Shown piece after piece: positions 3,831 through 58,104 of a stretch of 64,000 nucleotides of DNA. Numbering within the stretch: the stretch's first letter is position 1; each line of letters starts with the position of its first letter. The stretch is from an uncultured Gammaproteobacteria bacterium (GTDB lineage: Bacteria; Patescibacteriota; Microgenomatia; UBA8517), in the NCBI GenBank assembly GCA_964429215.1, contig CAYSAY010000001.1, forward strand, positions 182,127 to 246,126, in the 5' to 3' direction. A program made the translations under genes and the position numbers. Under the pieces are notes generated by a model. That model saw nothing but the letters and a program-made list of their open reading frames with translations. It had not been told where the DNA came from and did no database searches.

Positions 3831-3848
3831 TTATGTAATTTTTTGGAA

Positions 3849-3885: not shown

Positions 3886-3934
3886 AATCCAAGAGATAAA
3901 GAAGTAAAAAGATAGAAAAGATATAAAAATAAAA

Positions 3935-13609: not shown

Positions 13610-13637
13610 TGTAAGTTTTGTTTGGGCCTCTCTAATG

Positions 13638-13704
13638 TTCCTCACCACCCCCAAAAAGTTTAATAGCGACTGCGCTGTTGAGCCAAAGGTGGTGAGGAAT
13701 TTTT
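13638..13704 (+). terminator. Hairpin terminator downstream of the foreign gene
   Basis: Perfect 12-bp inverted repeat TTCCTCACCACC...GGTGGTGAGGAA followed by TTTTT; the loop is about 38 nt. Confidence 0.5.
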
Positions 13705-13860
13705 AGAAAGTTTGCCTGTGCGGTATAGAATAAAATTTTTGAATTAAAAACTCAAAAAACAATAAATCTATACGCACGGCAAGAACAAATTCGATTGTTA
13801 ATCTCCATTAAAATACTTCTATACTTGCATTAAATATATCTATCTAGTAACATTTCCATT

Positions 13861-15695: not shown

Positions 15696-15698
15696 ATT

Positions 15699-23233: not shown

Positions 23234-23277
23234 TAGTATGTATATTTTAGCAGATTAAAGTGGTAAAGTTTATTTAT

Positions 23278-25838: not shown

Positions 25839-25886
25839 AGTATTGATAATACCATATTGAGGCTACAATATGTTAGACTTATTCGT

Positions 25887-29067: not shown

Positions 29068-30420
29068 ATCGTTTTACACTCCTTGGAACTTGTTGATTTT
29101 AATAATTTTACTTTTTGCATTTATACTTAGAATTTATAGAATTGAATCACTTTTAGATTTTCATTACGACCAAGGAAGGGACGCCAAAATTATTTGGGAT
29201 TTATGGCATTCACAGAAATTATTTTTGATAGGTCCAACAACAGGACTTGAAGGAATATTTTTGGGTCCATTTTATTATTATTTAATTGCTCCGTTTTATT
29301 TAATTGGTGGAGGTAATCCTACTATTCCTTCAATGTTTTTATCATTACTCTATACCATAGCTTTATATATACTTTATTTGACAGGATTCAAAATTCAGGG
29401 TCGGTTTACAGGTTTTGTTGCACTTGTTGTAGGAGCTTTTTCAAACAACTTGGTTTTTTCAAGTAGGTGGCTATCAAACCCTACTCCAATTTTTTTAACT
29501 TCAATTATAATTTTCTATTTAATGGTATTAATTATTAAAAAGGAAAAGCCTATTTACTGGATTTTGGTTTATTTGGCAGTTGGTGTTTCATTACAACTTG
29601 AATTGGCAAGCGCAGTATTTTATCTACCAATATTGGCTATTTTTACGATTTGGCAGTTACGAAAAATTAATATCAAAATTTTTTTATTAGCTTGTGTGAT
29701 ATTTTTTGTAACTTTAATTCCTCAAATATTATTTAATTTTAAGCATCAGAATATATTACTTAATAATATTATTAATGAAGTCAAAAATGGAAAATCAGTT
29801 CAGATTAACTATGTTGATAGGATTGGAAATCTATGGAAAATAACAAAAGAGATATTTTAATACTTATATCATTATTTTTAGGTGTACCATTTGTTGGATT
29901 TACTTTATATTCTGGCAATAATGGTAATTTGTATGGTTACTATTTGACAGGATATTTTTTAATAATTATTTTGGCATTTTCATACTTAGCTTCGTATATA
30001 TGGAAATTTAAAATAGGAAAGATTTTAGTTATATTATTTTTATTTTTGTTTTTAAAAAATAATTTAGCAAAAACAATAAATAAATTAAATGTTGATGTAT
30101 TAGAATCTAAAGAGATCGTTTTGCAAAATCAGTTGATAGCAATTAATTGGATAAGAGAGGATGCTGGATTGGATAAATATAATATAGATATCTATGTTCC
30201 ACCTGTAATTCCGCATTCGTACAATTATTTGTTATTGTGGAATAATATAGTTCAAGAAGAAAAGGAAACAACTATTTTATACACTTTATATGAAGATGAT
30301 CCGCCTCATCCTGAAAGATTGAATGCATGGTTGGAACGTCAGAAAAAAATTGGTAAAATTCTTTATGAAGAAAGGTTTGGAGGTATAGTGGTGCAAAGAA
30401 GAGAGAGGATTAAAAAATGA
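29048..30420 (+). pseudogene. GT-C membrane glycosyltransferase paralog split into two frames (29048-29860 and 29833-30420): frameshift or sequencing error
   Basis: The N-terminal piece has HYDQGRDAKII...GPFYYYL, homologous to neighbouring GT-C genes. The second ORF continues the membrane domain in another frame. Combined length matches the intact paralogs. Confidence 0.45.
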
Positions 30421-31906: not shown

Positions 31907-32644
31907 ATGAAGATCTCAATTGTAATACCATCATATAACGAAGAGAATAATATCCGTACAGGAGCACTTTCCGGAATGGTTGATTATTTAAATGATCAGA
32001 AATATAAATGGGAAATTATTGTAGTTGATGATGGATCAACAGACAAAACTGCAGAACTTGTAGAAAAATTTGCAGCATCACACAAAGGAGTTACAATTTT
32101 AAAAGAACCTCATAGAGGTAAAGGAGGAACAGTTATAGCCGGAATGCTTAAGGCTACAGGCGATATTGTGATTTTTGATGATATGGATCAAGCAACACCG
32201 ATAGATCAATTAGAAAAGATTTTACCTAAATTTAAAAATGGATTTGATATAGTAATAGGTTCTCGTGCTGGTCGTGAAGGAGCTCCCTTAATAAGAAAGA
32301 CAATGGCCTTGGGCTTTTCATTACTTCGAAATTTAGTTTTACAACTACCATATAAAGATACTCAGTGTGGGTTTAAAGCATTTACAAAGGATGCTTCTAC
32401 TAAAATTTTTAAGAAATTACAGATTTTTAACAACAAACAGGCTCAGTCTGGTGCTTCAGTTTCCGCTGGATTTGATTTAGAAATTTTATATGTCGCGAGA
32501 AAACTTAAATTAAAAGTATCGGAAGTTCCTGTCGTTTGGCATCATAAAGAGGGAACTAAAGTTAATCCAATTAAGGATTCTTGGGAGGGACTTCGTGATT
32601 TGTTAAAGGTAAGAGTTAATGCAATTATGGGAAAATATAAATAG
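31907..32644 (+). CDS. Polyprenol-phosphate sugar synthase (DPM1/GtrB-like GT2)
   Basis: MKISIVIPSYNEENNI...IIVVDDGSTDKT...FDDMDQ. Confidence 0.7.
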   Translation: MKISIVIPSYNEENNIRTGALSGMVDYLNDQKYKWEIIVVDDGSTDKTAELVEKFAASHKGVTILKEPHRGKGGTVIAGMLKATGDIVIFDDMDQATPIDQLEKILPKFKNGFDIVIGSRAGREGAPLIRKTMALGFSLLRNLVLQLPYKDTQCGFKAFTKDASTKIFKKLQIFNNKQAQSGASVSAGFDLEILYVARKLKLKVSEVPVVWHHKEGTKVNPIKDSWEGLRDLLKVRVNAIMGKYK

Positions 32645-34074: not shown

Positions 34075-34917
34075 TTGTTAATTGTGTCAACTGAAATTTC
34101 AAAAATAGTTTTGTTTAAAGATCAGAAAATTCGACGAGATTGGAACAAAAAAGAGGAGAAATGGTATTTTTCTGTAGTAGATGTGGTTTCCGCACTATCT
34201 TCAAGTCATAATCCTCAGGTTTATTGGAGAGTTTTAAAGAAAAGGTTGCTTGACGAAGGATCAAATGAAACCGTTACAAAATGTAACGGTTTAAAAATGA
34301 AAGCGTCAGATGGAAAAATGAGATTAACAGATGTTGCTGATACTGAAACAATATTAAGACTTATTCAATCAATTCCATCACCAAAAGCTGAACCGTTTAA
34401 ATTGTGGCTAGCAAGGGTTGGCTATGAAAGGATTGAAGAAACAGAAGATCCAGAAAAAGCAATTCAGAGAGCTTTATCTACATATCTTAAAAAAGGTTAC
34501 TCAAAATCGTGGGTAGATTTGAGACTTAAAAGTATCGAAATAAGAAAGGATCTCACAGATGAATGGGAAGAACGAGGCGTTAAAAAATCGAATGAATTTG
34601 CAATACTAACTGATGATATTACATTTGCTTGGGCTGGTTTAAGAACCAAAGATTATAAAAACTACAAAAGTTTAAAGAAAGAGAACTTAAGGGACAACAT
34701 GACCAATTTAGAGTTGGTTTTAAATATGCTTGCTGAAACAGCAACAACTGAAATATCAAAAACTAAAAAACCTGATACATTTCCTAAAAACAGAATTGTA
34801 GCTCGAGAGGGTGGAAATATTGCAGGAAAAGCCAGAGAAGAAATTGAAGCAAAATCAGGTAGAAAAGTAATTAGCAAATACCGTTTTGATCAAAAAAGTG
34901 ATAAATTACTAAAATAA
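34075..34917 (+). CDS. Bro-N domain protein (phage antirepressor / DNA-damage-inducible-like)
   Basis: KEEKWYFSVVDVVSAL...NPQVYWRVL and KAEPFKLWLARVGYERIEE resemble Bro-N domain motifs; Lys/Glu-rich C-terminus. The start is uncertain, possibly the GTG at 34084. Confidence 0.6.
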   Translation: MLIVSTEISKIVLFKDQKIRRDWNKKEEKWYFSVVDVVSALSSSHNPQVYWRVLKKRLLDEGSNETVTKCNGLKMKASDGKMRLTDVADTETILRLIQSIPSPKAEPFKLWLARVGYERIEETEDPEKAIQRALSTYLKKGYSKSWVDLRLKSIEIRKDLTDEWEERGVKKSNEFAILTDDITFAWAGLRTKDYKNYKSLKKENLRDNMTNLELVLNMLAETATTEISKTKKPDTFPKNRIVAREGGNIAGKAREEIEAKSGRKVISKYRFDQKSDKLLK

Positions 34918-37320: not shown

Positions 37321-38781
37321 GTGGAAGAAGAAATTGGAATAGAAACAGTTAAGGAACGAAGTGTCCGCGGAATTGTCGTATTGACTGGTAGAACTTTTTT
37401 ACTTCAAATTATAAGTTTAGTTGCACAACTTTTTTTATTTGCTTATCTTGGTAGATACGAATTTGGAGTATTTGCCATAGTTTCTGCAATTATTAACTTT
37501 CTTGTTTATTTTTCGGATATTGGCCTTGCTGCAGCTTTAATACAGAAAAAGGAGAAGCCAACTGAATTAGATTTAAAAACCACATTTACAGTACAACAGA
37601 TTTTAGTATTTTTAATAATAGGAGTAGTTTTACTTTTAACCCCATTTTTTGCTGAAAAATACTCATTAACTACTGATGGGAGAGTACTTTTGTATGCATT
37701 AAGTGCATCGTTAGTTTTTTCATCTTTTAAGAGTATCCCATCAGTGTTGTTAGAGAGAAAGCTGGAATTTGTTAAATTAGTTTTTCCTCAGATTTTAGAG
37801 CAAATTGTCTATAACTTAGTACTTGTAGTAATGGCCATGAACGGAGCAGGTTTGGCTAGTTTTAGTGTAGCCGTTCTTATTAGGGGTGTTGTAGGCCTTG
37901 CAACTATTTATTATCTACAGCCTTGGAAACCCGGTATTGCATTTTCAAGAGAAACATTAAAAGGACTGTTTAAGTTTGGAATTCCATATCAAATTAATAC
38001 GTTTCTTGCTACATTAAAAGACGATGGCATGACCATTGTGTTAGGAAGTATAATCGGCCCTGTTGGGATTGGAATACTTTCTTTTGCTCAAAAAATTGCA
38101 AGGCTTCCGCTTACTTTTTTTATGGATACTGTAACACGTGTAACTTTTCCTGCATTTTCCAGACTTCAAGATTCTAAACATGATTTAGAAAGAAGCGTAA
38201 CTAGATCAATATTCTTTATTTGCTTGTTGGTGTTTCCAAGTCTTGCTGGAATAATTATTCTATCTCCTCTACTTGTTAAGGTCGTTCCTAGATATGAACA
38301 ATGGACCCCAGCTCTTTTGCCAATTATATTTATTTCGATAAACTTTGCCTTTGCTGGAGCTACGACACAACTAACTAATTTACTAAATGCTATTGGAAAG
38401 ATAAAAATAACTTTTTATCTCATGATTATGTGGACAGTTTTAACTTGGTTAATGGTTCCATTCCTTGCACTTAAATTTGGTGTAAATGGTGCATCCGTTG
38501 GATATTCATTAGTTGGGGCATCATCTTTGATAGCTATTTTTATAGCGAAAAAATATGTTAATTTTTCAATAGGAGATTCAATTGTTAAACCTTTAATCGG
38601 AACTGTATCTATGATGATCATACTATTAATTGTACGTAACTTTTTAGATGTAAGTGTTAATTCAATGTTTATATTAGGGTTAGTAGGTGTTCTTGTTTAT
38701 GGGTCTGCAATGATATCTATGATTGGTGTTTCTTTAATAGAAGATGCTAAAAAAAGCTTTAAAACTATATTTTCAAAATAA
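37321..38781 (+). CDS. Wzx-like oligosaccharide/polysaccharide flippase (MOP superfamily)
   Basis: About 14 TM helices; N-terminus RSVRGIVVLTGRTFLLQIISLV is typical of Wzx-family flippases. Confidence 0.65.
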   Translation: MEEEIGIETVKERSVRGIVVLTGRTFLLQIISLVAQLFLFAYLGRYEFGVFAIVSAIINFLVYFSDIGLAAALIQKKEKPTELDLKTTFTVQQILVFLIIGVVLLLTPFFAEKYSLTTDGRVLLYALSASLVFSSFKSIPSVLLERKLEFVKLVFPQILEQIVYNLVLVVMAMNGAGLASFSVAVLIRGVVGLATIYYLQPWKPGIAFSRETLKGLFKFGIPYQINTFLATLKDDGMTIVLGSIIGPVGIGILSFAQKIARLPLTFFMDTVTRVTFPAFSRLQDSKHDLERSVTRSIFFICLLVFPSLAGIIILSPLLVKVVPRYEQWTPALLPIIFISINFAFAGATTQLTNLLNAIGKIKITFYLMIMWTVLTWLMVPFLALKFGVNGASVGYSLVGASSLIAIFIAKKYVNFSIGDSIVKPLIGTVSMMIILLIVRNFLDVSVNSMFILGLVGVLVYGSAMISMIGVSLIEDAKKSFKTIFSK

Positions 38782-45343: not shown

Positions 45344-45971
45344 GGATTTACACGAACATGTTCCAGCAAATTGGTACTTCGAATCTTTAAAGAAAGATCC
45401 ATTCCAAAAACTTTGGCATACTACACGGTTTAGAGAAGTAAGAAAAGTTGCATCTTCTGCAGACTCAGTACTTGATGTTGGGTGTGCAGATGGAGTGTTC
45501 TCGAATGTAATTTTTAAAAAGATAAATCCTAAAAAATATATTGGTTTAGACGTAGTAAAGACTTCAATTGCTTGGGCAAAGAAACATTGGGCAAAAAACA
45601 AGAGAATGAAGTTTGTAGTTGGTGATGCTCATAACCTTACATTTAAAGATAATCAGTTTGATGCAGTTTTTTGTCTTGAAGCTTTGGAACATGTCGCGGA
45701 TCCAATTAAGGTCTTAAAAGAGTTTAAAAGAGTTATGAAAAAAGATGGTTATGGAGTATTTTTAGTACCATCTGATAATGATCTATTTAAAATTGTTTGG
45801 TGGGTTTGGTTGCATTTTTATCCTAGAGGTTGGGTTTGGAGAGAAACACATATTCAAACATATCGTAATAACTATCTTCCAATAGCTTGTAAAAAAGCTG
45901 GATTTAAAGTGGAGATAGATAAAAAATTCAATTTAGGTATGTTGCACTTAGTCAAGGTAAGGAAATCATGA
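45321..45971 (+). CDS. Class I SAM-dependent methyltransferase
   Basis: VLDVGCADGVFS motif I and downstream motifs. Confidence 0.65.
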   Translation: MDTKKIGEDLHEHVPANWYFESLKKDPFQKLWHTTRFREVRKVASSADSVLDVGCADGVFSNVIFKKINPKKYIGLDVVKTSIAWAKKHWAKNKRMKFVVGDAHNLTFKDNQFDAVFCLEALEHVADPIKVLKEFKRVMKKDGYGVFLVPSDNDLFKIVWWVWLHFYPRGWVWRETHIQTYRNNYLPIACKKAGFKVEIDKKFNLGMLHLVKVRKS

Positions 45972-46876
45972 ATTTGACCAGTAAATTTAAAGTATCCGTT
46001 GTAATTCCTAATATTAATGGCAAGTTTTTGTTGGAGAAAAACCTTCCTAAAATATTTAATATTGTAAATAATCCTAGAAATAATATTTTAGAAGTTGTAA
46101 TTGTTGATGATGGAAGTACTGATGATAGTGTTAAGTTTTTAGAGAAAGAATATAAAGGAAAAATAAAATTAATTAAGCATACTAAGAATAGAGGATTTTT
46201 AACTGCAGTTAATACAGGAGTTAGATCGACAAAAGGAGATTTAATATTACTTTTAAATACTGATGTGTACCCAGAGGATAATTTTTTGGAATATGTATTC
46301 CCTCATTTTGAGAACAAGCAAGTGTTTGCTGTATCAACCCATGAAAAAGGTTTTGGAGCAACTCGAGGATTGTTTGTAGATGGTTATATTAGTCTGAGTA
46401 TGGCTCCAGAGACTAAATCCTCGGACAATTGTTTTTACGCAAATGGTAGTGGGGGCGTATTTCGAAAAAGTATTTGGCAAAAACTTGGTGGAATGGATGA
46501 GAAATTATTATCTCCAAATTATTGGGATGCAATCGATATTTGTTTCAGAGCCTCTAAAAGAGGATATGTAAATATATGGGAACCAAATTCTGTGGTGACT
46601 CATAAACATGAACCTACAAAATCAAATTTTTCTGAAAAATATATGTTAAAAGTAAAGGAAAGAAATCAGTTGTTGATGATTTGGAAAAATATTCATAGTA
46701 AGAATTTGATTTCTAAGCATATCGGCGCTGTTTTTGCGAGATGTTTAAGGCACCCGGGATATATCAAAATTGTGTTGATGGCACTATCTAGATTGCCTAT
46801 TTTACTCAAAGCTAGAAAAAAAGAAATTAAAGAATGCGTAGTAAGTGATGAAGCCGTGTTTCAAAAGTTTATTTAG
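45968..46876 (+). CDS. Glycosyltransferase family 2
   Basis: VSVVIPNINGKFLLEKNL...VVIVDDGSTDDS...LNTDV. Confidence 0.7.
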   Translation: MNLTSKFKVSVVIPNINGKFLLEKNLPKIFNIVNNPRNNILEVVIVDDGSTDDSVKFLEKEYKGKIKLIKHTKNRGFLTAVNTGVRSTKGDLILLLNTDVYPEDNFLEYVFPHFENKQVFAVSTHEKGFGATRGLFVDGYISLSMAPETKSSDNCFYANGSGGVFRKSIWQKLGGMDEKLLSPNYWDAIDICFRASKRGYVNIWEPNSVVTHKHEPTKSNFSEKYMLKVKERNQLLMIWKNIHSKNLISKHIGAVFARCLRHPGYIKIVLMALSRLPILLKARKKEIKECVVSDEAVFQKFI

Positions 46877-46907: not shown

Positions 46908-48593
46908 ATGCTTAAAATTGTTAAAAATAGACTCTTCTGGATTATCTTGGTCATTATATTTTCAATTCCTGCAGTTTGGAATCTTTTAAGGCCTGGATTT
47001 TTTCCAATGCAGGATGATTTACAAGCTTTTCGTGTCCAGCAAATGGACAAATGTATTCAAGATGCACAAATTCCATGTCGTTGGGTACCTGACGCAGGGT
47101 ATGGTTATGGTTATCCTCAATTTAATTACTATCCACCCCTTCCATATTATATTGGTGCGCTTATGCATAGAGTTGGTATCCAATACATAGATACTGTAAA
47201 AATATTATTTATTTTTGGTTATGTCGCTTCAGCTGTTTCTATATTTATTTTAATTGAAGCCTTAATTGGGTCTTGGCCTGCTTTTGTGTCGTCTATCCTT
47301 TACACATATATTCCGTATAAGGCTGTAGAGGTCTATGTTAGAGGAGCATTGAGTGAGTTTTGGGCGCTTACATTTTTCCCTTTGATATTGTGGGCAATTT
47401 ATAAATTGATTACCTCGGGAAGTAAAAAGTATTTTATATTGTTCTCTATTTATTTAGGATTACTTTTTACAACTCATAATTTGATGACCTTAATCTTTGC
47501 CCCTGTTGCGATTATATGGGCTATTTATTGGTTGTACGCAGAAAAGAAGATGAATAAAATGTTTATGAAGGTCGGTTTATCGGGGCTATTGGGTGTTGGG
47601 TTGGCTGCTTTTTTTACATTACCTGTAATTTTTGAAAAACAGTTTGTTCACGTAGAGTCTATGCTGTCAGGATATTTTGATTATCGTGCACACTTTGTCA
47701 ATTTATATAAAATATTTCTCTCTAGAGAATGGGGTTATGGGTCATCAGGTTTTCCAAATGAACTTCTTAATCTCTCTACGGGGTTGATTCAGTGGATAGT
47801 TGGAATAATTGCATTATTCTATGGAATTAAATATTTAAAAAAGGATCGCAAATCTTCTTTGTTGGTGATTGTTTTATCTGCAATTGAATTAATAACTTTG
47901 TTTATGATCCACATGAAATCGAGTTTTATTTGGGCACAAATCCCAGCTCTTTGGTATTTACAATTCCCTTGGAGATTTTTAGCTGTTAGTATATTTTTGC
48001 TTTCTACTTTAGGTGCATATGCAGTTTATTTTTCTGGAAAGTTTAAATATGTTTTTGGAACCATTCTTGTTATTTCTGCAATTTTCGTGAATATAGGTTT
48101 TTTTGTTCCAAAAGATTGGCTATACATAACTGATTCAGATAAGTTTTCTGGGATAAGTTGGCAGAAACAAATGACTATAAGTATTTTTGATTATCTCCCT
48201 ATATACGCAACTCTACCACCTATTAATGAAGCACCTAAGGTTCCCGAAATAATGGATGGGAAAGCAGAAATAATTGATTACAAAAAGGGGAGTGACTTTC
48301 AAATGGGGAGTATCAAAGTATTAGAAGATGCAAACATTCGTTTACCACTGTTTGATTTTCCTGGAATGAAGGTTTGGTTAAATGGTAAAGAAATAACTCA
48401 TTATAATAATGATTGTAGAGGTACAGACTTTTGTTACGGACTTATTTCATTCGCAGTTCCAAAAGGTGAGCATAAAATTGAAGTTAAATTAACTGATACA
48501 CCTATTAGAAGAATAGGAAATATAATTTCGATTTTAAGTATAATAGTACTATTAGCATTGATATTTATTAAATATGATACAAAAACTAAGTAA
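46908..48593 (+). CDS. Polytopic membrane protein, paralog family C (QDDL...IPCRWVPD motif), first of three tandem copies; putative GT-C-type glycosyltransferase
   Basis: TM1, then a loop with DD and CRWVPD, then about 12 TM helices, then a C-terminal soluble beta-rich domain. Confidence 0.5.
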   Translation: MLKIVKNRLFWIILVIIFSIPAVWNLLRPGFFPMQDDLQAFRVQQMDKCIQDAQIPCRWVPDAGYGYGYPQFNYYPPLPYYIGALMHRVGIQYIDTVKILFIFGYVASAVSIFILIEALIGSWPAFVSSILYTYIPYKAVEVYVRGALSEFWALTFFPLILWAIYKLITSGSKKYFILFSIYLGLLFTTHNLMTLIFAPVAIIWAIYWLYAEKKMNKMFMKVGLSGLLGVGLAAFFTLPVIFEKQFVHVESMLSGYFDYRAHFVNLYKIFLSREWGYGSSGFPNELLNLSTGLIQWIVGIIALFYGIKYLKKDRKSSLLVIVLSAIELITLFMIHMKSSFIWAQIPALWYLQFPWRFLAVSIFLLSTLGAYAVYFSGKFKYVFGTILVISAIFVNIGFFVPKDWLYITDSDKFSGISWQKQMTISIFDYLPIYATLPPINEAPKVPEIMDGKAEIIDYKKGSDFQMGSIKVLEDANIRLPLFDFPGMKVWLNGKEITHYNNDCRGTDFCYGLISFAVPKGEHKIEVKLTDTPIRRIGNIISILSIIVLLALIFIKYDTKTK

Positions 48594-50196
48594 GAACTGG
48601 ATTTTAATTTTAATATTTATTCTTGGTCTTTCTGTTTCCTGGCCTTTGATGAAATCAGGATATTTTTCTCATCAAGATGATTTACATGTAATTAGAATAG
48701 TTGAGATGAGAAAGTGTTTCACTGATCTTCAAATTCCATGCCGTTGGGTACCTGATATGGGTTGGGGAAACGGTTTACCTATGTTTAACTTTTACGGAGT
48801 TTCGACGTATTATTTTGGTGGTATTTTAAGTTACATTTTCGGATATTTAATTTCTGCAAAAATTCTATTTTTCGTGGCATTAGTCTTAGGAAGTTTTGGT
48901 ATGTACTTGTTAGTTAACAATTTGTGGGGAAAATATGCTGGATTAATTGCAGCAGTTTTATATATGTTTGCACCTTATAAGGCACTTGATATTTATGTAC
49001 GTGGTGCATTGACCGAAGCGATAGCATTATCGATCGTGCCATTTGTTTTTTACTTTTTTCAGAAAAAAGATTACAGATATGCAACGCTATTTTTATTTTT
49101 GTTTCTAATAACACATAATATTATGACAATAATATTTTTGCCGGTTTTATTACTTTGGGTTTTTTACTTACAATTTGAAACAAAATTTAAAGATTTTAAA
49201 ATAGTTTTTACTTCATTTGCTATCGCATTTGGTATGTCTGCCTTTTTTCTATTGCCTGCATTTTTAGAAAAAGATTTGGTACAGACTGAAAGTTTAACGA
49301 GATTTGAACTTGATTATCGTGCAAACTTCATTAGTGTAAAGCAACTGTTTTTAGATAGGGCGTGGGGTTATGGAACATCTATTCCAGGACCAGAAGGGGG
49401 AATGAATTTTCAGATTGGTTGGCCACATTGGATTCTTGCTGTTTTGTCATTATCAGTAATCTTTGTTAAAAAAATAGATAAAAAAACAAAAATTTTAGTT
49501 TTATCCATATTCATGATATTTCTTATGTCAGCGTTCATGACACACAATAAATCCTCTTTTATTTGGGAAAGAATTAATGTTCTTCGTTTTTTTCAATTCC
49601 CTTGGAGATTTTTATCGTTATCAATTTTGACATCTTCAATTTTAGGTGGTTTTATTGTTTCATTGCTGAAAAATAAAATACAAATATTTGTGTGTTCTTT
49701 AGTAATAATATTAAGTTTTGTTTTAAATTGGAATTATTTTAAACCTCGAGAATTTTATGGTCTTACTGATAATGATCGATTAACAGGATTGCAGTGGGAT
49801 CAGCAACGAAAAGGAGCATTGCTAGACTACTTACCAAAGACTGCACTTGAACCAAGAGAAGGTGCGCAAACATTACCACTTGTAATTAGTGGCGAGTCTA
49901 AAGTAACTGGTTTTGTGAACAAATCAAATAGTTTTAAATTTAATATTGTGGTTAATAGTGAATCTAAAATAGAGGTGCCAGTTTATTATTTTCCAAATTG
50001 GGAGGTTTTAGTAAATGGTACAAAATATCCTTCTACACATGATAATTTATTGGGGAGAATTGCAATTAATTTAAAAGAGGGTGAATATGTAGTTACTGGA
50101 AAATTTAGAAATACGCCATTAAGAACTATGTCTAATGTGATATCGTTAATTAGTCTGTTTGGTTTAATATACTTATGGAAAAATTACAAAAAATAA
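48574..50196 (+). CDS. Paralog family C membrane protein (second copy)
   Basis: SHQDDLHVIRIVEMRKCFTDLQIPCRWVPD; same architecture as the first copy. Confidence 0.5.
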   Translation: MIQKLSKNWILILIFILGLSVSWPLMKSGYFSHQDDLHVIRIVEMRKCFTDLQIPCRWVPDMGWGNGLPMFNFYGVSTYYFGGILSYIFGYLISAKILFFVALVLGSFGMYLLVNNLWGKYAGLIAAVLYMFAPYKALDIYVRGALTEAIALSIVPFVFYFFQKKDYRYATLFLFLFLITHNIMTIIFLPVLLLWVFYLQFETKFKDFKIVFTSFAIAFGMSAFFLLPAFLEKDLVQTESLTRFELDYRANFISVKQLFLDRAWGYGTSIPGPEGGMNFQIGWPHWILAVLSLSVIFVKKIDKKTKILVLSIFMIFLMSAFMTHNKSSFIWERINVLRFFQFPWRFLSLSILTSSILGGFIVSLLKNKIQIFVCSLVIILSFVLNWNYFKPREFYGLTDNDRLTGLQWDQQRKGALLDYLPKTALEPREGAQTLPLVISGESKVTGFVNKSNSFKFNIVVNSESKIEVPVYYFPNWEVLVNGTKYPSTHDNLLGRIAINLKEGEYVVTGKFRNTPLRTMSNVISLISLFGLIYLWKNYKK

Positions 50197-51851
50197 TATC
50201 TAAAAACATTTGGTTAATAATTCTAGCACTTTCTATACCTGCTGTAAGATATTTATTCGTTTTTGGATATTTTGGAGTTTCGGATGATTTACATATAGGG
50301 TGGCTTTTTGAAATGGATAGGGCTGTAAGGAATTTACAATTCCCTCCAAGATATATTCCTGATTTATCATTTGGTTTTGGATATCCATTATTTACATTTG
50401 TATATCCTTTACCTTTTTACATCGCCGAGATGTTTCATGTTGCTGGTTTTTCATTAGTTAATAGTATTAAGCTAGTTTTTGGACTTTCAGTTCCTTTTTC
50501 TATGTACTTTATGTACAAATTGTTAAGATTGTACTCCAAAGAAGATATTTCTCTTGCTGGAGCAGTACTTTATGTCTATGCACCATATAGAGCGTTAGAA
50601 TTTTTTGTGAGAGGAACGTTAGGGGAGATAGTTGCTTTTGTTTTCTTTCCTTTGATTATTTTATCTTTCATCAAATTAACAAGTAATAATCTTTCAAATA
50701 ATGGAAAGTCATTAAAGTGGGTGGGAATTGCTGGTTTGTCACTTGCAGGCCTTGTTTTGTCGCATAATATTATGGCTTATATGTTCATGCCGTTTTTACT
50801 TTTATTTGTTATTGCTCGTGTTTTGTTTTTAGTAAAAGACAAATGGCTAATAGCTAAAGACTGTTTTGTAGCTTTCATCCTCGGTCTTCTTTCGTCAAGT
50901 TATTTTTGGGTTCCTGCAATTTTAGAGAGTAAATTAATGAAATATGACACAGTTTTTAACTTTTATGACCATTATCCAGCGCTTAAACAATTTATCAATC
51001 CATATTGGGGTTACGGGGCTTCAGTACCAGGTAATTACGACACGATGTCATTTTATATGGGAGCTGTTGGCGTTTTGGTAATAGCTTTTGGCACATTAAT
51101 TTTTGTAATAAAGCAGAAGTTGTTTTCAAAAGAAGAAAAAATATTGTTTGGTTGGTCCATTTTTACGATACTTGTATCGGTGTTCATGATGAACTTTAGA
51201 TCTGCGTGGTTTTGGAGAAACTTACCTCTTCTTCCGTATTTTCAATTTCCTTGGAGATTTTTGGCTATGATTACCTTAATGTCTCCTATTTTATTAATTG
51301 TTTTTTCAAAATTTACAAAAATTAAATTCATTTCTATTGCTGTGATTATTTTTGCAATATTTTTAAATTTTAATTATTTTAAAACAAGTGAGTATTTAGG
51401 TCGTAATGATGATTATTATATAAATAGATATATTCCAGTTCCTGTTGCAACTGAGGCATATTTTAAAACTTCAGAAGAATATTTAAGATTGCCAAATGAA
51501 ACAGAAAAACGACCAGACAAAAATTATCCTAGGGCTTTTACTGAGAGTAGTGAAGCTAAACTTGAAGTTGAAGAATTGAGCCCTTTAAATGCAATAATAA
51601 AAACAGAAAGCGAAAAAGAGTTTGTATTAAACTACAATAAATATAATTACCCGGGTTTTTTTGCAAAGATTGATGGTAATAAAGTTGAAATTAAATCAGG
51701 AAAACCTTTTGGTCAAATTTCATTTTTAGTTCCTAGTGGAAAACATGAAGTAATCGTGGGGTATAAAGAATCACCATTTAGATTGATCTTTGATATAATT
51801 TCAGCTATTGCAATTGTAATCTCAATTTATTTAATAATTAGGAAAAAATGA
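50175..51851 (+). CDS. Paralog family C membrane protein (third copy)
   Basis: VSDDLHIGWLFEMDRAVRNLQFPPRYIPD; same architecture as the other two copies. Confidence 0.5.
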   Translation: MEKLQKIISKNIWLIILALSIPAVRYLFVFGYFGVSDDLHIGWLFEMDRAVRNLQFPPRYIPDLSFGFGYPLFTFVYPLPFYIAEMFHVAGFSLVNSIKLVFGLSVPFSMYFMYKLLRLYSKEDISLAGAVLYVYAPYRALEFFVRGTLGEIVAFVFFPLIILSFIKLTSNNLSNNGKSLKWVGIAGLSLAGLVLSHNIMAYMFMPFLLLFVIARVLFLVKDKWLIAKDCFVAFILGLLSSSYFWVPAILESKLMKYDTVFNFYDHYPALKQFINPYWGYGASVPGNYDTMSFYMGAVGVLVIAFGTLIFVIKQKLFSKEEKILFGWSIFTILVSVFMMNFRSAWFWRNLPLLPYFQFPWRFLAMITLMSPILLIVFSKFTKIKFISIAVIIFAIFLNFNYFKTSEYLGRNDDYYINRYIPVPVATEAYFKTSEEYLRLPNETEKRPDKNYPRAFTESSEAKLEVEELSPLNAIIKTESEKEFVLNYNKYNYPGFFAKIDGNKVEIKSGKPFGQISFLVPSGKHEVIVGYKESPFRLIFDIISAIAIVISIYLIIRKK

Positions 51852-53092
51852 AGAAATTCGTAACAATAATTTTAACAATTGGAATAATCCTACGTATTAT
51901 TTTGTCTTTAACTACTTATCATTCTGATATTATTCCATTTGATTTTGCAGGAAAGGTTATAGCAAGCGGAAATGTTACTAATTTTTACGATTACCTCTGG
52001 GATTTACCAGATAATCATCCTTATCTAAAGGTATACCCAAGGAATTTATTTAACTACCCTCCACTTCCTTATTTCTTTTTAGGAGGAACATCTCTTTTAA
52101 CAACTTGGATAGTTGATTCAACAGTACATGATAATTTTGTATTAGATTTTCCTAAAACTTTAGGTAATCCTCAACTTAATCTGTTGCTGTTATTAATGAA
52201 GCTTCCATATTTCTTTTTTGATATAGCCATAGCATTTATGCTTATGAGCATATTCAAAACAGAAAAAGAAAAGAAGTGGGTATTCGCATTATGGATTTTT
52301 AATCCTGTTAGTCTTTATGCAACTTACATGGTTGGACAATTTGATGTAATACCAACTTTTTTAACTGTGGTTGCATTGTTATTAGCACTAAGGAAGAGTT
52401 CGTTATTACCGAGTGCGATTTTGTTAGGTCTTGGTGCTGGATTTAAGATATTTCCGTTATTGTTTATAATTCCTTTAGCCTTTGTAAAAGTGAATTGGAC
52501 AGAGAGAGTTAAGATACTTGCTGTTTCTGGTATGACTTATATAGTTGCCTCTTTTCCGTTTCTATTTTCTGAAGGTTTTAGAAGAACTGCATTACTTGCG
52601 GGACAAACTACTAAAAGTTTGTATGCTCAAATTCCAATTTCAGGTGGTGAATCTGTAATTTTATTCTTGGCTGCAACAGTATTCATTTATATTTTATTCA
52701 TGTATAAACAAACACTAGCAGTGGATTTGTGGAAAAGATTTTTTGTCATGATATTAGTCTTTTTCATATTTACTCATTTTCATCCACAGTGGTTTTTGTG
52801 GACAATGCCATTTTTTGTATTAGATTTAGTTTATACAAAGTTTAAACATTTGCCCTTGTTCGCAGGTTTATTGGCAGCATATGTTGGAATGATTAGTTTT
52901 TTTGATTCTGGTCTTTCAATTGGGTTATTTGCACCAATTAACCGAGGTTTATACAATTTGCCTGATTTCTGGAAGCTATTGGGGCTAAATTTTGATGTTA
53001 ATATGTCAAGAAGTTTATTGCATACTATTTTTGTTGGTATCTCGTTATACTATATATATTATTATTTCCCAAGAAATGATCAAAAATCTTAA
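51848..53092 (+). CDS. Polytopic membrane protein, paralog family D (NYPPLPYFFLG motif; DUF2029/GT87-like)
   Basis: Homologous to the next gene; about 11 TM helices. Confidence 0.5.
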   Translation: MKKFVTIILTIGIILRIILSLTTYHSDIIPFDFAGKVIASGNVTNFYDYLWDLPDNHPYLKVYPRNLFNYPPLPYFFLGGTSLLTTWIVDSTVHDNFVLDFPKTLGNPQLNLLLLLMKLPYFFFDIAIAFMLMSIFKTEKEKKWVFALWIFNPVSLYATYMVGQFDVIPTFLTVVALLLALRKSSLLPSAILLGLGAGFKIFPLLFIIPLAFVKVNWTERVKILAVSGMTYIVASFPFLFSEGFRRTALLAGQTTKSLYAQIPISGGESVILFLAATVFIYILFMYKQTLAVDLWKRFFVMILVFFIFTHFHPQWFLWTMPFFVLDLVYTKFKHLPLFAGLLAAYVGMISFFDSGLSIGLFAPINRGLYNLPDFWKLLGLNFDVNMSRSLLHTIFVGISLYYIYYYFPRNDQKS

Positions 53093-54284
53093 ATTAACAT
53101 TACTTTTGGTGATATCACTTCGTATTTTAGTCTCTGGTTTGCTTTTTCATCCTGATATCAAGACAATTGCATTCCAAACGTCCTTTTTGAAGCAAGGAGT
53201 TTTTAATATTTACCCATATTTAATTAATAATAGGGCAAGTTTACCTTTGAAAGAAGAATTTGTTTATTTCCCTTTAACTTATTTCACCCTCGGTAGTTAT
53301 CAGACTATAGCTACAAGTATATTGGGAAGTAATTTCACTAAGTGGCTAAATGATGCAGGGGCGAATTCTGTAGTGAATAATCCTAGCGTAATTTTATACT
53401 TAATATTTTTGAAATTGCCGTTACTGGTGACTGATATTGCGATTGCATTTTTACTTCTCAAAATTTTCAAAGACAAAAAAGAGGGTGAACAGGCATTTAC
53501 TTTGTGGTTATTTAATCCTTTTACTATTGTTTTAATCTATGCCTTTTCTAATATTGACTTGTATGCAGTTCTACTTACTTTAATTGCGTTTTTATATATA
53601 AAACGAGAAAAATTGATTACCGCCTCAGTGTTCATTGGTCTTGCAGTATCATTTAAACTTTATGCTCTCCTTTTCGTTCCATTTCTGTTTCTTAAAGCCA
53701 AGGATACTAAAGAAAAGATTTTGTCAGTAATTGTACCTATTTCTATCTTTTTGATTACAATCGTTCCATTTTTTTCACAGTCCTTTATAAACTCAGCACT
53801 CCTTTCAGGTTTGTCCACTAGGCTATTTGGACCGAGTTTTGCGATAGGGTTTGGTGAATCAGTTGTAATGGGAATATTTTTGATGACAGTATTATTTTTT
53901 GGAGGTTTTATAAATGATACAAAGGTTCATTTGTTTAACTACTTTGTGAGTTTACTTTTAATTATTTTTTCATTTTCCCACTATCATATATCATGGCTAC
54001 TTTGGATTGCGCCGTTTCTTGTAATATTGGCAGTTAAACGACCTAAACTAACTTTGCCTATATTTTTTTGGTCAGTATTTGCAATAGCTGTTCCAATGTT
54101 TTATTCAGATCGATCAATGACAATTTCTCTTTTTAGGATTTACACCACTTGGTATGATATGTTGCCTACACCGTTTTTAGTAATACAGAAGATATATGAT
54201 CCTTATATCTTCCAAAGTATGTTACATTCAGTACTAGCAGGTATATCAGTTGTTATTGCATATAAAATAAATAAAAATGATTAA
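53073..54284 (+). CDS. Paralog family D membrane protein (second copy)
   Basis: VYFPLTYFTLG...FLKLPLLVTDIAIAF parallels NYPPLPYFFLG...LMKLPYFFFDIAIAF. Start chosen at MIKNLKL. Confidence 0.5.
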   Translation, partial: EMIKNLKLTLLLVISLRILVSGLLFHPDIKTIAFQTSFLKQGVFNIYPYLINNRASLPLKEEFVYFPLTYFTLGSYQTIATSILGSNFTKWLNDAGANSVVNNPSVILYLIFLKLPLLVTDIAIAFLLLKIFKDKKEGEQAFTLWLFNPFTIVLIYAFSNIDLYAVLLTLIAFLYIKREKLITASVFIGLAVSFKLYALLFVPFLFLKAKDTKEKILSVIVPISIFLITIVPFFSQSFINSALLSGLSTRLFGPSFAIGFGESVVMGIFLMTVLFFGGFINDTKVHLFNYFVSLLLIIFSFSHYHISWLLWIAPFLVILAVKRPKLTLPIFFWSVFAIAVPMFYSDRSMTISLFRIYTTWYDMLPTPFLVIQKIYDPYIFQSMLHSVLAGISVVIAYKINKND

Positions 54285-54858
54285 CAAATCGAAATTAATA
54301 GTCTTTACAACAATTACAATTTTATTTTTGTTGTTTGTATTACCTGTCCTTATGATACTTCCTATCAGGATGGTTCCTAGTGGTGACCAGCCTGGGTATG
54401 GTGATATAGGAAGAGTATCTGTCTATGGTTTAAGGCAATTTACTCAAACGTTCAAGTCAACTGATATTAATTTAATGGCAATTGGGACTACTATTAAAAA
54501 TCCGAATTTAAAAAATAAAAAGGTTGTTAATTTTAATTTGTATGATGAAAAGAATAATTTAATTAGAGAAGTTAAACTAAATGGATTTAACATTGGAGAC
54601 GGTGATTTTGTAAAAATTGTATTTGATGTTATTCCTGATTCTAAAAACAAGAATTATAGCTTTACAATTTCATCTCCAGAAGCAAACGAAGAAGAAATAT
54701 TAGAATTATTCTTGATAGGTCCAACAGAGTCTATTTTTACCTATGCATATAACGATGAAGTTAAAGAGGGTGGAATACCTATGGTTACCTTTCATAAGCC
54801 TGAAAGTTTAGGAAAAAATATAGTTAAAATATACTCTAATATATTCTCCAAACTATAA
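54277..54858 (+). CDS. Hypothetical membrane-anchored protein
   Basis: N-terminal TM segment; no family recognised. Confidence 0.4.
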   Translation: MINKSKLIVFTTITILFLLFVLPVLMILPIRMVPSGDQPGYGDIGRVSVYGLRQFTQTFKSTDINLMAIGTTIKNPNLKNKKVVNFNLYDEKNNLIREVKLNGFNIGDGDFVKIVFDVIPDSKNKNYSFTISSPEANEEEILELFLIGPTESIFTYAYNDEVKEGGIPMVTFHKPESLGKNIVKIYSNIFSKL

Positions 54859-56707
54859 CCTCTGAGTTTTCGAATAATTTAATAAGACCAAGTGATTTAA
54901 TATCAATTTTTGGTGCGACTTCCTTAGGATAATACAAAATGTTTGAATTGGTTGATGATATGGCTGATTTAACAACGTCAGCTTTATCACTGTTAAATAT
55001 AGTTTTTTTGATTTCTAAACGAGGTCTATATTCGTATCCCATGATGTCTACTTGTTCGTAATCGTCAAAATATGTTCTTCTTGATGTTAACGCTGAAACA
55101 TATGACGTATCAAACCAGTCCCAGATATGAGGAATTGGTTTTTTTAGGTTTAAATATTCATTGTATGGAGGAGTTAAGATAACATCGTCTACATTAGTAT
55201 TATTTTTTATAAAATTAAGTGCTTCAAGTTCAGCAGCAGTAATTTTTGTGAAAGGTTGCCTTATATGGTTATCTGAGATGTAGAATTCGCGAAAGAGCTT
55301 TACTTGTGTTGGAATCATCAAAGAAAACAAGAATATCGTATATAGTATGTAGTATATTGGTTTCTTGACTCTGGCAAATATTTGAGCAGTACTAATACCG
55401 GCTAATATGCCAAATAACAAAATAAAGTATTGTAAAAATTGTGCAGTGTTACTTGCTACACCTTTTTGCAAAAAGAGTAATGGTAAAACAATTGATAGAA
55501 TAATTGAGACCTTAAATATTGCATTAGTTTTCACTAATTCCCATAAACCTAGAAATCTCATTCCTAAATTTCCAAAGAAGAAAATTAAAAAGCCCATTCC
55601 TTCAAGCCAGATTACGCGTTTCCAGTTGTGTTCATATATATATGTTTGGCGTCTTAATTCCCAATCCAAAAGGTTAAGTCTTGAAGGTTCTACTATCATT
55701 GTCCTTATATACCACCAAGGTTCGTAAATCAAAAATGATCCAGTGTTTGAAGAGTTAGGAATGTATAGGGCAAGTGCCACGATTCCACTTAAAAGAGAAA
55801 GTAAAAATAGTCTTCTGTCTTTGTTAAAAATTAATTTCCATGTACCAATAATTGATAATGTGCCAAGCAGGATTACTCCTGCATATATTTTAAAGGCTGA
55901 TATTGTTCCTAGTAAAATAAGTGAAATTAAAAAGTACTTTTTTTGTAATCTTTTCTCTTTTTGATCGAGAAAAACTACGCAATAGTAAATGCTCGCTAAA
56001 AATAAAAAATTAGAGATTATTTGGGGAGGATTACCACTAGAACTTTGAATTTGAGTAGCCCAGAAGACGCTTTCTCCCTTTCCAATCAAATATCCAAAAC
56101 TACCTGCAAAATATGTAAATATGGTTGCCCATATTGAAGCTGAAAAGTTATTTGTTAGTTTTTTTGTCAAATAATAAACAGAAGCTCCAAGAAATAATGA
56201 ATAAATTAATGGGAATATTTTAAAATATAAATTTTCATTTGAAATGCCTGTGTATTTACTAACTATGGTTGGTAATATATCTGAAAAAAAATGATAATTT
56301 TTAAGCGGTGTTCCGGCAAAAATTGGATTTTGGAACGGATAACCTTTCTTAATTTCCTCCATTAATGCCATGTGCCAAGTACCATCATGACCATGGGCGC
56401 TCCAGAAGACTAAATCTCCTGAATTATTGTATGTGCCACTTGGTGAAATGATTGCAATTTGACTAATAATTCCAATAGTGAATATTAAAATAACAATTAT
56501 TGTTTGTATGTTTAATTTGATTTTTATACTTTTAAATCTTTTAACTAAAGAGCGAAAATTGAATACAATCGTTAAAAATAAAACTGGTATGATTAAGTAG
56601 GGAATATTTAGTACAATAAAGATATATGAAACCAGAGTTGCAAGGGAAAATGCAAAAATCGAACCCATTAACAAGCTTTCCATTTGCAAATTATATACTA
56701 ATTGCAA
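54836..56707 (-). CDS. Polytopic membrane protein, paralog family B (inverted copy of the 38744 gene)
   Basis: VFWSAHGHDGTWHMAL...PIFAGTPLKNYHFF aligns with the 38744 product. The 5' end is uncertain because the ORF overlaps the divergent gene at 56650. Confidence 0.5.
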   Translation of the reverse strand: MQLVYNLQMESLLMGSIFAFSLATLVSYIFIVLNIPYLIIPVLFLTIVFNFRSLVKRFKSIKIKLNIQTIIVILIFTIGIISQIAIISPSGTYNNSGDLVFWSAHGHDGTWHMALMEEIKKGYPFQNPIFAGTPLKNYHFFSDILPTIVSKYTGISNENLYFKIFPLIYSLFLGASVYYLTKKLTNNFSASIWATIFTYFAGSFGYLIGKGESVFWATQIQSSSGNPPQIISNFLFLASIYYCVVFLDQKEKRLQKKYFLISLILLGTISAFKIYAGVILLGTLSIIGTWKLIFNKDRRLFLLSLLSGIVALALYIPNSSNTGSFLIYEPWWYIRTMIVEPSRLNLLDWELRRQTYIYEHNWKRVIWLEGMGFLIFFFGNLGMRFLGLWELVKTNAIFKVSIILSIVLPLLFLQKGVASNTAQFLQYFILLFGILAGISTAQIFARVKKPIYYILYTIFLFSLMIPTQVKLFREFYISDNHIRQPFTKITAAELEALNFIKNNTNVDDVILTPPYNEYLNLKKPIPHIWDWFDTSYVSALTSRRTYFDDYEQVDIMGYEYRPRLEIKKTIFNSDKADVVKSAISSTNSNILYYPKEVAPKIDIKSLGLIKLFENSEVIVWRIY

Positions 56708-58104
56708 TATTAATATTAGGCTTCATTTTAAGAGTGTATAAGATTAACTCACTTCCTATATACGGTGATGAACTTACAATTGTTTACGATAGTTATAGCT
56801 TACTAAAAACTGGCCGTGATCAAACAGGTGAATTTTTGCCAATTACATTTAAAATGGGAGCAGGTAGGCCTGCTGGATACGTTTACGGAAGTATACCGTT
56901 TGTTGCTTTATTTGGTCCTACAGCACTCGGAGTACGTGGATTGTCTCTGCTTTCTGGTCTTGGAATTATAGTAATAATGTATTTTCTGGGAAAGAAAATC
57001 TTTGGCCCGCCTGCCGGCGAGGCGGGTGAAAAAATTGGGCTTATTGCAAGCTTTTTAACAGCTATTTCATCTTGGGATATTTATTTATCCAGAGCAGGTT
57101 TTGAAGCACATTTTGCACTATTATTAACGCTTGCTGGAGTACTTTTGTTTTTACATAGAAGGTATATGGTAATGGCTATTCTTTTTGGACTAGCCGCTTT
57201 TACATATCCCACATTTAAATTAACAATACCATTATTGGGTGTTATTTTACTTTTGTATTCAGGGTTTAAGAGTGTTGTTTATCAGAAATCATTTTTAATT
57301 TCTCTTGTTGTTCTTGTATTATTTGCTGGATTTAATTTACGTGAAACTATTAAAGGTGTTTCGGAAGAAAGATTTATGAGGTTAAACATTCTCGCTGACT
57401 CGAATGTAAAAGAAGAAGTCATCCAAAATATCAATGAGCAGAGAAAACTATCAAGCCTTCCTGAATCGATTAAACCATATATTTACAATAAACCGTTTAG
57501 ATATACTAGGATTTTATTTGAGAATTATATTGAAAATTTGTCACCTCAATTTTTATATTTAAGAGGTGATAGAAATCCAAGGCATAATCCTGGCGAGTGG
57601 GGAATGATGTATTTAATAGATATTCCATTACTGTTTACAGGTCTGTATTATTTGGCCAAATTAGAAAAAAAGAATTTAGTTTTTCTTGTTTTGTGGATTT
57701 TGATTGTTCCTCTTGCTACTATGCTTCTCGGTCAAACGCATGCTTTGAGAAATAATTTAATGTTGCCTCCTCTAATTTTAATTTCTGCTTTTGCTTTAGC
57801 AAATTTACCCAAATTGTTTTCTACAATAGCTCTTTTAATTATGGGAACACAGTTAATTTTTGTATTAATGGCTGTTTATTTTTATGCCCCACATAAATTT
57901 GGTTCATTTTGGTCAATTGACGCAAAAAATGCATCGTTAACGGCTATTGGACAAGACAAAAGTAAACAAGTGGTTCTTTCTACAAAAATTGGGGATATCG
58001 AATATGCTTATCCAGTTTACGCCAAAATTGATCCAAGACTTGTAATTTCTCAATATCAAAAATGGCCAAAAGTTTATGGCAATGTAATTATTACAAATGA
58101 ATAA
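56650..58104 (+). CDS. ArnT/PMT-like GT-C membrane glycosyltransferase (tandem copy 1 of 4)
   Basis: LRVYKINSLPIYGDELTIVYDSYSLLKTGRDQTGEF; DE loop motif. Start at the ATG at 56650 by alignment with its paralogs. Confidence 0.6.
   Translation: MQKSNPLTSFPFANYILIAILILGFILRVYKINSLPIYGDELTIVYDSYSLLKTGRDQTGEFLPITFKMGAGRPAGYVYGSIPFVALFGPTALGVRGLSLLSGLGIIVIMYFLGKKIFGPPAGEAGEKIGLIASFLTAISSWDIYLSRAGFEAHFALLLTLAGVLLFLHRRYMVMAILFGLAAFTYPTFKLTIPLLGVILLLYSGFKSVVYQKSFLISLVVLVLFAGFNLRETIKGVSEERFMRLNILADSNVKEEVIQNINEQRKLSSLPESIKPYIYNKPFRYTRILFENYIENLSPQFLYLRGDRNPRHNPGEWGMMYLIDIPLLFTGLYYLAKLEKKNLVFLVLWILIVPLATMLLGQTHALRNNLMLPPLILISAFALANLPKLFSTIALLIMGTQLIFVLMAVYFYAPHKFGSFWSIDAKNASLTAIGQDKSKQVVLSTKIGDIEYAYPVYAKIDPRLVISQYQKWPKVYGNVIITNE

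Follow-up and report, generated by a model that had tools for sequence, protein, structure and literature searches.

In mycobacteria (Actinobacteria), embCAB comprises three tandem paralogous GT-C genes whose products, arabinosyltransferases, carry C-terminal extracytoplasmic beta-rich domains and use polyprenyl-monophosphate sugar donors to build wall polysaccharide. A second group of GT-C membrane enzymes, the YfhO family (PF09586), includes YfhO of B. subtilis and S. aureus, which transfers N-acetylglucosamine to lipoteichoic acid, YfhO of Listeria, which acts on wall teichoic acid, and the streptococcal proteins PgtC2, PgfM1 and PgfM2, which function in protein O-glycosylation. Enzymes of this family pair with a GT2 that makes a C55-P-linked sugar, and the characterised analogues that use such GT2-made lipid-sugar donors are CsbB/GtcA/YfhO (PMC8035078) and GtrB/PgtC2 (PMC12041528). 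Less is recorded about PF10131 (PTPS_related), which is listed in the GT-C clan CL0111 as "function unknown" (PMC7801869). Here, we describe three tandem genes, referred to as paralogs A, B and C, that lie in a stretch of 64,000 nucleotides from an uncultured Microgenomates bacterium, on contig CAYSAY010000001.1 (assembly GCA_964429215.1, positions 182,127 to 246,126; hereafter the window). We consider it probable that the three paralogs are membrane glycosyltransferases that have the GT-C fold and are of a PF10131/YfhO-like kind, each of them probably active and acting outside the cell on envelope glycan. The triad consists of uncharacterised members of a known GT-C type, and its conservation as a triad, together with the fusion of its members to GT2 domains, are the most useful new facts.

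The three genes run into one another, with the end of A overlapping the following gene by 20 nt, that of B by 22 nt and that of C by 4 nt, and the same products of 561 and 540 residues are found in the public gene calls of the same metagenomic contig (ENA ERZ27247837, 195,692 bp). Pairwise BLASTP alignments, which extend over nearly the full length of the proteins, give 35% identity for A and B (E=1e-111), 28% for A and C (E=7e-54) and 30% for B and C (E=6e-56), so that at the level of sequence the paralogy is far above chance. Hydropathy and the secondary structure of an AlphaFold2 model of A were used to derive the layout of the protein. The model was computed from an 89-sequence alignment and has a predicted local distance difference test score (pLDDT) of 87.1 and a predicted TM-score (pTM) of 0.91. 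A basic N-terminus is followed by the first transmembrane (TM) helix, TM1 (residues 8-27), a long loop 1 (residues 28-92) that includes a juxtamembrane helix, and ten further TM helices. The TM2-TM10 core is the part that aligns to PF10131 positions 1 to ~300-346. Short basic loops (KKMNK 212-216, KYLKKDRKS 309-317 and SGKFK 376-380) face one side of the membrane and, by the positive-inside rule, these loops together with the basic N-terminus and C-terminal tail assign an extracellular position to loop 1, the 243-292 loop and the C-terminal domain. In this model-based topology, each paralog is predicted to have its N-terminus inside, to cross the membrane 11 times, to expose a beta-sandwich of ~130 residues outside and to return to the cytoplasm through a last helix. 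Within the 243-292 loop, pLDDT falls below 50 at residues 252-256 and 275-286, and this low model confidence suggests that the loop may be mobile. The original prediction, which was made from the DNA letters and open reading frames (ORFs), had claimed three tandem paralogs of 540-561 residues and had described TM1, an acidic loop, a multi-pass core and a beta-rich C-terminal domain. Both the gene arrangement and this layout are borne out by the ORFs, the BLASTP alignments, hydropathy and the model, and the final TM helix at residues 532-553 is an addition to that description.

The same prediction had drawn attention to three motifs, which the three proteins share to different degrees. QFPWRFL is identical in A, B and C, while the literal strings QDDL and IPCRWVPD are restricted to A and B, because C reads SDDL and FPPRYIPD at these places; the common form of the second element is P-x-R-[WY]-[VI]-P-D. 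When 89 relatives were compared (A residue numbering), the loop-1 residues D36, D37, Q54, P56, R58, P61 and D62 were found to be invariant in 89/89, as were K98, R145, E150, H190, E243, G276-Y277-G278, S280 and Q352-R356. A separate comparison of the classes, comprising 64 A, 47 B (the B of the window and 46 orthologs) and 49 C sequences, showed that D36, R58, K98, R145, E150, H190, Q352, W355 and R356 are invariant in every one of them, with E243 invariant in the A and B classes and E or D in the C class. All conserved polar residues (D36, D37, R58, D62, K98, R145, E150, H190, E243, WGYGSS and QFPWR) map to the outer face or to the outer ends of helices. A contains only four cysteines, which form two outside pairs, 49/57 and 503/509. 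The first pair covaries perfectly among the 89 relatives (46 C/C vs 43 non-Cys/Pro), and paralog C is without it; these sequence patterns fit a loop-1 disulfide that would be present in the A and B types and lost from the C type. An outer location of the loop-1 DD is indicated by the positive-inside rule and the co-varying Cys pairs. Both loop-1 motifs, DD and RW-PD, lie outside the Pfam model for PF10131, whose match starts at residue 72.

A Foldseek comparison of the model of A with the PDB supports the assignment to the GT-C fold. GT-C enzymes account for 37 of the 38 top matches, with AftA as the best match (E=3.6e-5), AftD as the one with the best TM-score (TMq 0.45), and AglB, STT3, PglB, Pmt4, Pmt1-Pmt2, ArnT, EmbA/B, DPY19, ALG12 and ALG9 among the others. 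The fold superposition and the loop-1 acidic motif, with D36-D37 present in all 89 relatives, both place the proteins in clan CL0111. A search of the PDB with the sequence profile returned noise only (E >= 0.18, TetR-like regulators), so sequence alone is insufficient to tie the family to solved structures. When compared by hhalign with the YfhO protein encoded in the same window, the A/B/C family aligns over TM1-TM8 (81.5% probability, E=1.1e-5), with D37 set opposite the loop-1 Asp of YfhO, and the C-terminal domain of the family aligns with the YfhO C-terminus (57% probability, E=1e-4). The GT-C idea of the original prediction, which had named a Foldseek comparison with GT-C structures as its check, is supported, and the YfhO-like flavour that it had noted appears to hold as well, being further reflected in YfhO Pfam matches in 12 of the 89 relatives. 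Its suggestion of an unrecognised or undescribed family does not survive, since A passes the PF10131 cut-off, 57 of the 89 relatives match this family and NCBI already names the orthologs.

Compared in this way with the described systems, A, B and C resemble YfhO proteins in the GT-C fold, the loop-1 Asp, and a C-terminal beta-domain that has an "FPGW...G.H" pattern and is followed by a terminal TM helix. Unlike YfhO, they are ~550 residues long rather than ~790-870, their outer domain is much smaller, and none of the three gives a PF09586 match at E <= 1 (cut-off 28.5 bits). The likeness to the mycobacterial Emb/Aft arabinosyltransferases (EmbC-EmbA-EmbB, AftA, AftD) is structural, as the AftA and AftD matches illustrate, and the triad also recalls embCAB in being a tandem set of three GT-C paralogs with beta-rich C-terminal domains on the outer side. 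No sequence similarity is detectable, the lineages differ (Microgenomates vs Actinobacteria), and Emb and AftD exceed the triad proteins two- to threefold in size and carry genuine carbohydrate-binding modules. With PMT/GT39 and the ArnT-like PMT_2 proteins, the triad shares a weak PMT_2 match over TM2-TM7 and the ArnT and Pmt structural matches, but the scores stay below the cut-off (A 18.4 bits against 26.1; B and C none), PF02366 and MIR domains are absent, and the motif set is a different one (DD...RW-PD, QFPWRF).

Against the gathering cut-off of PF10131 (26.4 bits), A scores 28.5 bits and B, at 26.1 bits, falls just short. Among the 89 relatives, matches at E <= 0.01 were obtained to PF10131 in 57, PMT_2 in 53, DUF6541 in 15 and YfhO in 12, and relatives fused to other domains reach 46-104 bits for PF10131. 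Judged by these profile scores, PF10131 membership appears marginal for A, B and C themselves and solid for the family as a whole. No meaningful NCBIfam match was obtained for any of the three. NCBI names A-type orthologs "6-pyruvoyl-tetrahydropterin synthase-related protein" and C-type orthologs "glycosyltransferase family 39 protein"; the first of these designations is a misnomer for PF10131. The family is widespread: more than 2,700 homologs of A were found among the candidates scored, the top 120 of them at 60-94% identity, while C defines its own orthologous group of ~700, with top matches at 56-95% identity. Wherever the taxon names of these homologs are informative, they all belong to Patescibacteria, which also go under the name of candidate phyla radiation (CPR), and to the Microgenomates group, and the groups named are Woesebacteria, Daviesbacteria, Shapirobacteria, Collierbacteria and Dojkabacteria. 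A search of 1.84 billion representatives with the family profile retrieved 18,813 clusters (50% identity) at E <= 1e-3, of which 6,299 reach E <= 1e-30, and some members, judged by amino-acid composition, come from organisms with a high guanine-plus-cytosine (GC) content; the family is therefore large and extends beyond CPR. Many loci that are 40-70% identical to and collinear with the window stand under metagenome-assembled genome records titled "uncultured Gammaproteobacteria bacterium" (L007, L009, L010, L014 and many others), titles that look like placeholders or wrong taxonomy.

To follow the triad through related genomes, ORFs were classified in 84 related Microgenomates loci, of which 80 come from GTDB species representatives. 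The order A-B-C is kept in 50 of the 84 loci, sometimes with a fourth paralog, and relatives at a greater distance (40-45% identity) often occur singly (L062-L084). A complete CPR genome (CP129472.1, 841,695 bp) is collinear with the window over the entire neighbourhood, which reads Wzx-like flippase, methyltransferase, GT2, GT2, GT4, methyltransferase, GT2, A, B, C, GT87 and so on. Orthologs are 45-95% identical, as opposed to 28-36% between paralogs, and so the triplication must be old, with every copy retained. Class consensus sequences show that the A, B and C classes diverge at three places: loop 1, residues 405-440 and the beta-domain. Taken together, the old and retained copies, the invariant polar residues and these class-specific regions argue, at the sequence level, for three active enzymes that would differ in specificity rather than for redundancy or decay.

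Gene fusions offer further clues to the partners of the triad. A-type proteins of ~800-830 residues carry an N-terminal cytoplasmic GT2 domain, which is of one of two unrelated kinds. The first kind is rhamnosyltransferase-like and is fused in L003, L007, L012, L014, L045, L054, P0242, P0249, P0253 and P0325; elsewhere it is encoded by a separate gene between the upstream GT2 and A, and it is missing at that position in the window. For the second kind, PgfS, ArnC and Dol-P-hexose transferase come out as the best NCBIfam matches; it is fused in L083 and P0268, and the fused domain of L083 is 37% identical to the product of window ORF 31907-32644. The possibility that the fused domain is an ortholog of the GT2 encoded directly upstream of A (45968-46876) was considered and rejected, since the partners are two other GT2 types. 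In-frame fusions of B and C occur in P0241 (1093 residues) and in a 1094-residue ORF of L019, an arrangement that is topologically permitted because both termini of each paralog are cytoplasmic. Tandem fusions also join family members to PMT_2 modules (P0299, P0308, P0389) or to a YfhO-like module (P0374), and P0247 contains six stretches that match the family. Such giant proteins with 2-6 tandem GT-C modules (P0247, 3,329 residues; P0275, 1670; P0374, 1337; P0243, 1116), which partly stem from high-GC organisms, are either true multi-enzyme polypeptides or merged gene calls. In L003, two small genes (12438-13288; 132 and 151 residues, no Pfam match) that have no counterpart in the window lie between A and B, and an insertion of this type goes together with genomes that have the GT2-A fusion.

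We propose that a GT2 of the glycosylation island, resembling PgfS, ArnC or DPM1, would make a lipid-linked sugar donor in the cytoplasm, which would then be flipped across the membrane. The fused GT2 domains of L083 and P0268 and the GT2 genes of the island point indirectly, by analogy with the characterised systems, to a polyprenyl-phosphate donor. The polar residues on the outer face of A, B and C may bind this polyprenyl-phosphate-linked sugar and pass the sugar to an extracellular acceptor, with D36 and D37 serving, by analogy, as a catalytic or metal-binding acidic pair, K98, R145, H190 and R356 as putative phosphate ligands, and the class-specific outer domains possibly choosing the acceptor. 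Each of the three paralogs would most likely be responsible for a step of its own on one cell-surface glycan, the steps differing in the sugar, the linkage or the acceptor position, and the three may act alongside the adjacent GT87, YfhO and PMT_2 enzymes. Since rmlABCD and rhamnosyltransferase-like GT2 genes are found in the same window, one candidate for the product is a wall polysaccharide that contains rhamnose.

Several observations weigh against this interpretation. The PF10131 match is marginal for A and B, and C has no match in the Pfam scan; of the 621 positions of the model, the alignments cover 1-298/333 for A and B and run from 1 to ~300-346 for relatives that score higher, so that its second half is unmatched in all of them. 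The TM-scores against solved GT-C structures are modest (0.38-0.45, with TMq values of 0.27-0.45), and the equation of D36/D37 with the GT-C catalytic Asp is based on their position in loop 1 and one hhalign alignment. When the C-terminal domain was modelled separately (pLDDT 73), its matches were confined to accessory beta-sandwiches of a generic kind, from glycoside hydrolases and CBM6/35, and with E ~0.01 they are too weak for it to be called a carbohydrate-binding module. Among the fusions, the commoner GT2 partner is the rhamnosyltransferase-like one and not the polyprenyl-phosphate-sugar-synthase-like one, and every NCBIfam GT2 match is far below the equivalog cut-off. Finally, searches of the literature for PF10131, PTPS_related and CPR GT-C returned no PF10131 member with a functional or biochemical study.

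An arrangement compatible with our interpretation on fold and chemistry would have A, B and C assemble into a single hetero-oligomeric GT-C machine, as EmbA-EmbB or Pmt1-Pmt2 do, instead of working as three independent enzymes. Strictly conserved gene order, overlapping stop and start codons that suggest co-translation, the in-frame B-C fusions of P0241 and L019 and the presence of EmbA/EmbB and Pmt heteromers among the structural matches all speak for such a machine, but the full putative catalytic set is present in all three proteins, none of which therefore looks like a pure scaffold, and distant relatives occur as single genes; we regard it as a real possibility but lean against it. A bolder version, in which A-B-C forms a Microgenomates-specific GT-C "assembly line", possibly as an EmbCAB-like hetero-oligomer, that builds a lineage-specific envelope glycopolymer and in which the GT2 fusions serve direct donor channelling, strikes us as speculative and quite unlikely; if true, it would provide the first function for PF10131 and reveal a major component of the CPR envelope. 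The acceptor might also be protein instead of polysaccharide, with A, B and C as O-glycosyltransferases of the PMT/GT39 or PgtC2/PgfM1 kind that modify Ser/Thr-rich surface proteins such as pilins, S-layer proteins or membrane-anchored proteins. The PMT_2 matches of the relatives, the GT39 name given to C orthologs, the Pmt4 and Pmt1-Pmt2 structural matches and the activity of streptococcal YfhO-family enzymes on proteins (PMC12041528) are in line with this idea, which we nevertheless think unlikely, given the sub-cut-off or absent PMT_2 scores of the triad, a context of rmlABCD, rhamnosyltransferase-like GT2, Wzx flippase and GT87 genes that looks more like polysaccharide assembly, and the lack of an identified candidate acceptor protein.

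The structural matches to AglB, PglB and STT3 raise the question of whether the three proteins instead use polyprenyl-diphosphate-linked oligosaccharides, either transferring them en bloc, as an oligosaccharyltransferase or ligase, or polymerising Wzx-flipped repeats. A Wzx-type flippase is indeed encoded in the same array, and the proteins scanned included no recognisable Wzy-type polymerase. An STT3-type oligosaccharyltransferase was rejected as a candidate, as PF02516 is not matched at E <= 1 and the C-terminal domain contains no WWDYG motif; WGYGSS (residues 275-280) sits in the long membrane loop instead. A Wzy_C match is weak and confined to one of the 89 relatives, and monophosphate donors are what the fusion to a polyprenyl-monophosphate-sugar-synthase-like GT2 suggests, all of which makes diphosphate donors improbable in our view. 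For A, B and C, a role as transporters or as membrane proteins without enzymatic activity is one that we hardly credit at all: they are multi-pass proteins and a few MFS/GLUT structures do appear in the Foldseek list, but far down it (probability 0.06-0.2, TM-score ~0.1), no transporter model in Pfam or NCBIfam scores above noise, and the invariant acidic and basic residues are grouped on the outer face, as in GT-C enzymes. We thus favour three membrane glycosyltransferases that would act on envelope glycan from the outer side.

In itself the triad is unsurprising, both as a type of enzyme and for the type of locus that holds it, and the family is real, conserved and fairly ordinary. The density of GT-C-type membrane proteins around it is extraordinary, as the region 24708-62629 contains ~18 such genes in <40 kb in a lineage whose genomes measure ~0.8-1 Mb. 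A small-genome CPR bacterium thus spends ~40 kb on such proteins, and within this outlay the A-B-C triad forms a core that is conserved in Woesebacteria, Daviesbacteria and related groups. A functional assignment for PF10131 would extend to thousands of genes and would inform how epibiotic and ultrasmall bacteria build their surface, and concrete hypotheses on donor, catalytic residues and partners follow from the conserved motifs, the topology predicted here and the fusions to GT2 domains.

The triad belongs to a region, ~24.7-62.6 kb of the window, that is almost wholly devoted to glycosylation genes, including GT2 and GT4 enzymes and methyltransferases besides those listed in Table 1. GT87 follows C in most related loci. 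Three polyprenyl-phosphate-sugar-synthase-like GT2 genes, whose best NCBIfam matches, all below cut-off, are PgfS, ArnC, AglJ and Dol-P-hexose transferase, are co-directional with the triad, as is the Wzx-type flippase gene, at a distance of 8-23 kb. No GtrA-type flippase was found among the small ORFs and proteins scanned in the window.

Table 1. Positions in the window of the triad, of selected elements of paralog A and of neighbouring genes.
Feature	Position	Strand	Remarks
Paralog A, 561 aa	46908..48593	+	ORF; GT-C-fold membrane glycosyltransferase as predicted from the model, at the edge of PF10131
Paralog B, 540 aa	48574..50196	+	ORF; 20-nt overlap with the end of A
Paralog C, 558 aa	50175..51851	+	ORF; most divergent of the triad
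D36-D37 of A	47013..47018	+	Acidic pair opening extracytoplasmic loop 1; presumed catalytic or metal-binding motif
IPCRWVPD of A, residues 55-62	47070..47093	+	Loop 1
QFPWRFL of A, residues 352-358	47961..47981	+	Outer end of TM10 (secondary structure of the model)
Long extracytoplasmic loop of A, residues 243-292	47634..47783	+	Contains E243 and WGYGSS
Extracytoplasmic C-terminal domain of A, residues 400-531	48105..48500	+	Beta-sandwich, strands 447-528
C-terminal TM helix of A, residues 532-553, and basic tail	48501..48566	+	Hydropathy 2.87; helix in the model
GT2 glycosyltransferase	45968..46876	+	Directly upstream of A; PF00535 79 bits; ortholog precedes A in many loci
Two GT87-like GT-C genes	51848..54284 (starts 51848, 52992)	+	Directly downstream of C; PF09594 36.4 and 31.5 bits
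YfhO-family GT-C, 790 aa	42971..45343	+	PF09586 66 bits; three genes upstream; closest recognisable relative in the window
Wzx-type flippase (Polysacc_synt_3)	37321..38781	+	PF13440 183 bits; same co-directional array; conserved upstream in L001-L004
Polyprenyl-phosphate-sugar-synthase-like GT2	31907..32644	+	Candidate maker of the lipid-linked donor
Two further polyprenyl-phosphate-sugar-synthase-like GT2	23260-24396, 25857-26600		
PMT_2 proteins (~eight)	starts 26582, 29048, 30417, 35784, 56626, 58097, 59706, 61058		
GT-C-like proteins without Pfam match	starts 24708(-), 32662, 38744, 54836(-)		

Upstream of the island, a dTDP-rhamnose set at 13861-17068 encodes an NTP_transferase, a dehydratase, a dTDP-4-dehydrorhamnose 3,5-epimerase and RmlD (rmlA/B/C/D-like), and is followed at 19874-22593 by two rhamnosyltransferase-like GT2 genes, one of which encodes a protein of 597 residues with a double GT2 domain; to judge by this gene content, the island may produce a polymer that contains rhamnose. 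Several further features of the window deserve mention. A 270-residue ORF at 29048-29860, which matches the N-terminal PMT_2 domain only, overlaps by 28 nt a 195-residue membrane ORF without Pfam match (29833-30420); the two may be parts of a single PMT_2 gene that a frameshift has broken, or the break may reflect an error in sequencing or assembly. The sole minus-strand gene within the island, at 54836-56707, encodes a GT-C-like protein of 623 residues and occupies the same inverted position in L001 and L002 (611 residues); because it overlaps the plus-strand ORFs 54277-54858 and 56626-58104, one of the called starts may be wrong. A BRO-N domain protein is encoded inside the island (34075-34917) and a RhuM-family protein at a different point of the orthologous island of L003 (19515-20528); both types are typical of phages and mobile elements, hinting at insertions into the locus. 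The GC content of the window is ~31% throughout, no tRNA genes were found in it, and at 12001-14000 the GC fraction is 0.39 against ~0.31. An ORF in this segment (12773-13609; 278 residues, GTG start, no Pfam match, odd amino-acid composition) is possibly foreign DNA. At the start of the window, three consecutive ORFs of 411, 733 and 343 residues (2595-7160) have no Pfam match at E <= 1e-4.

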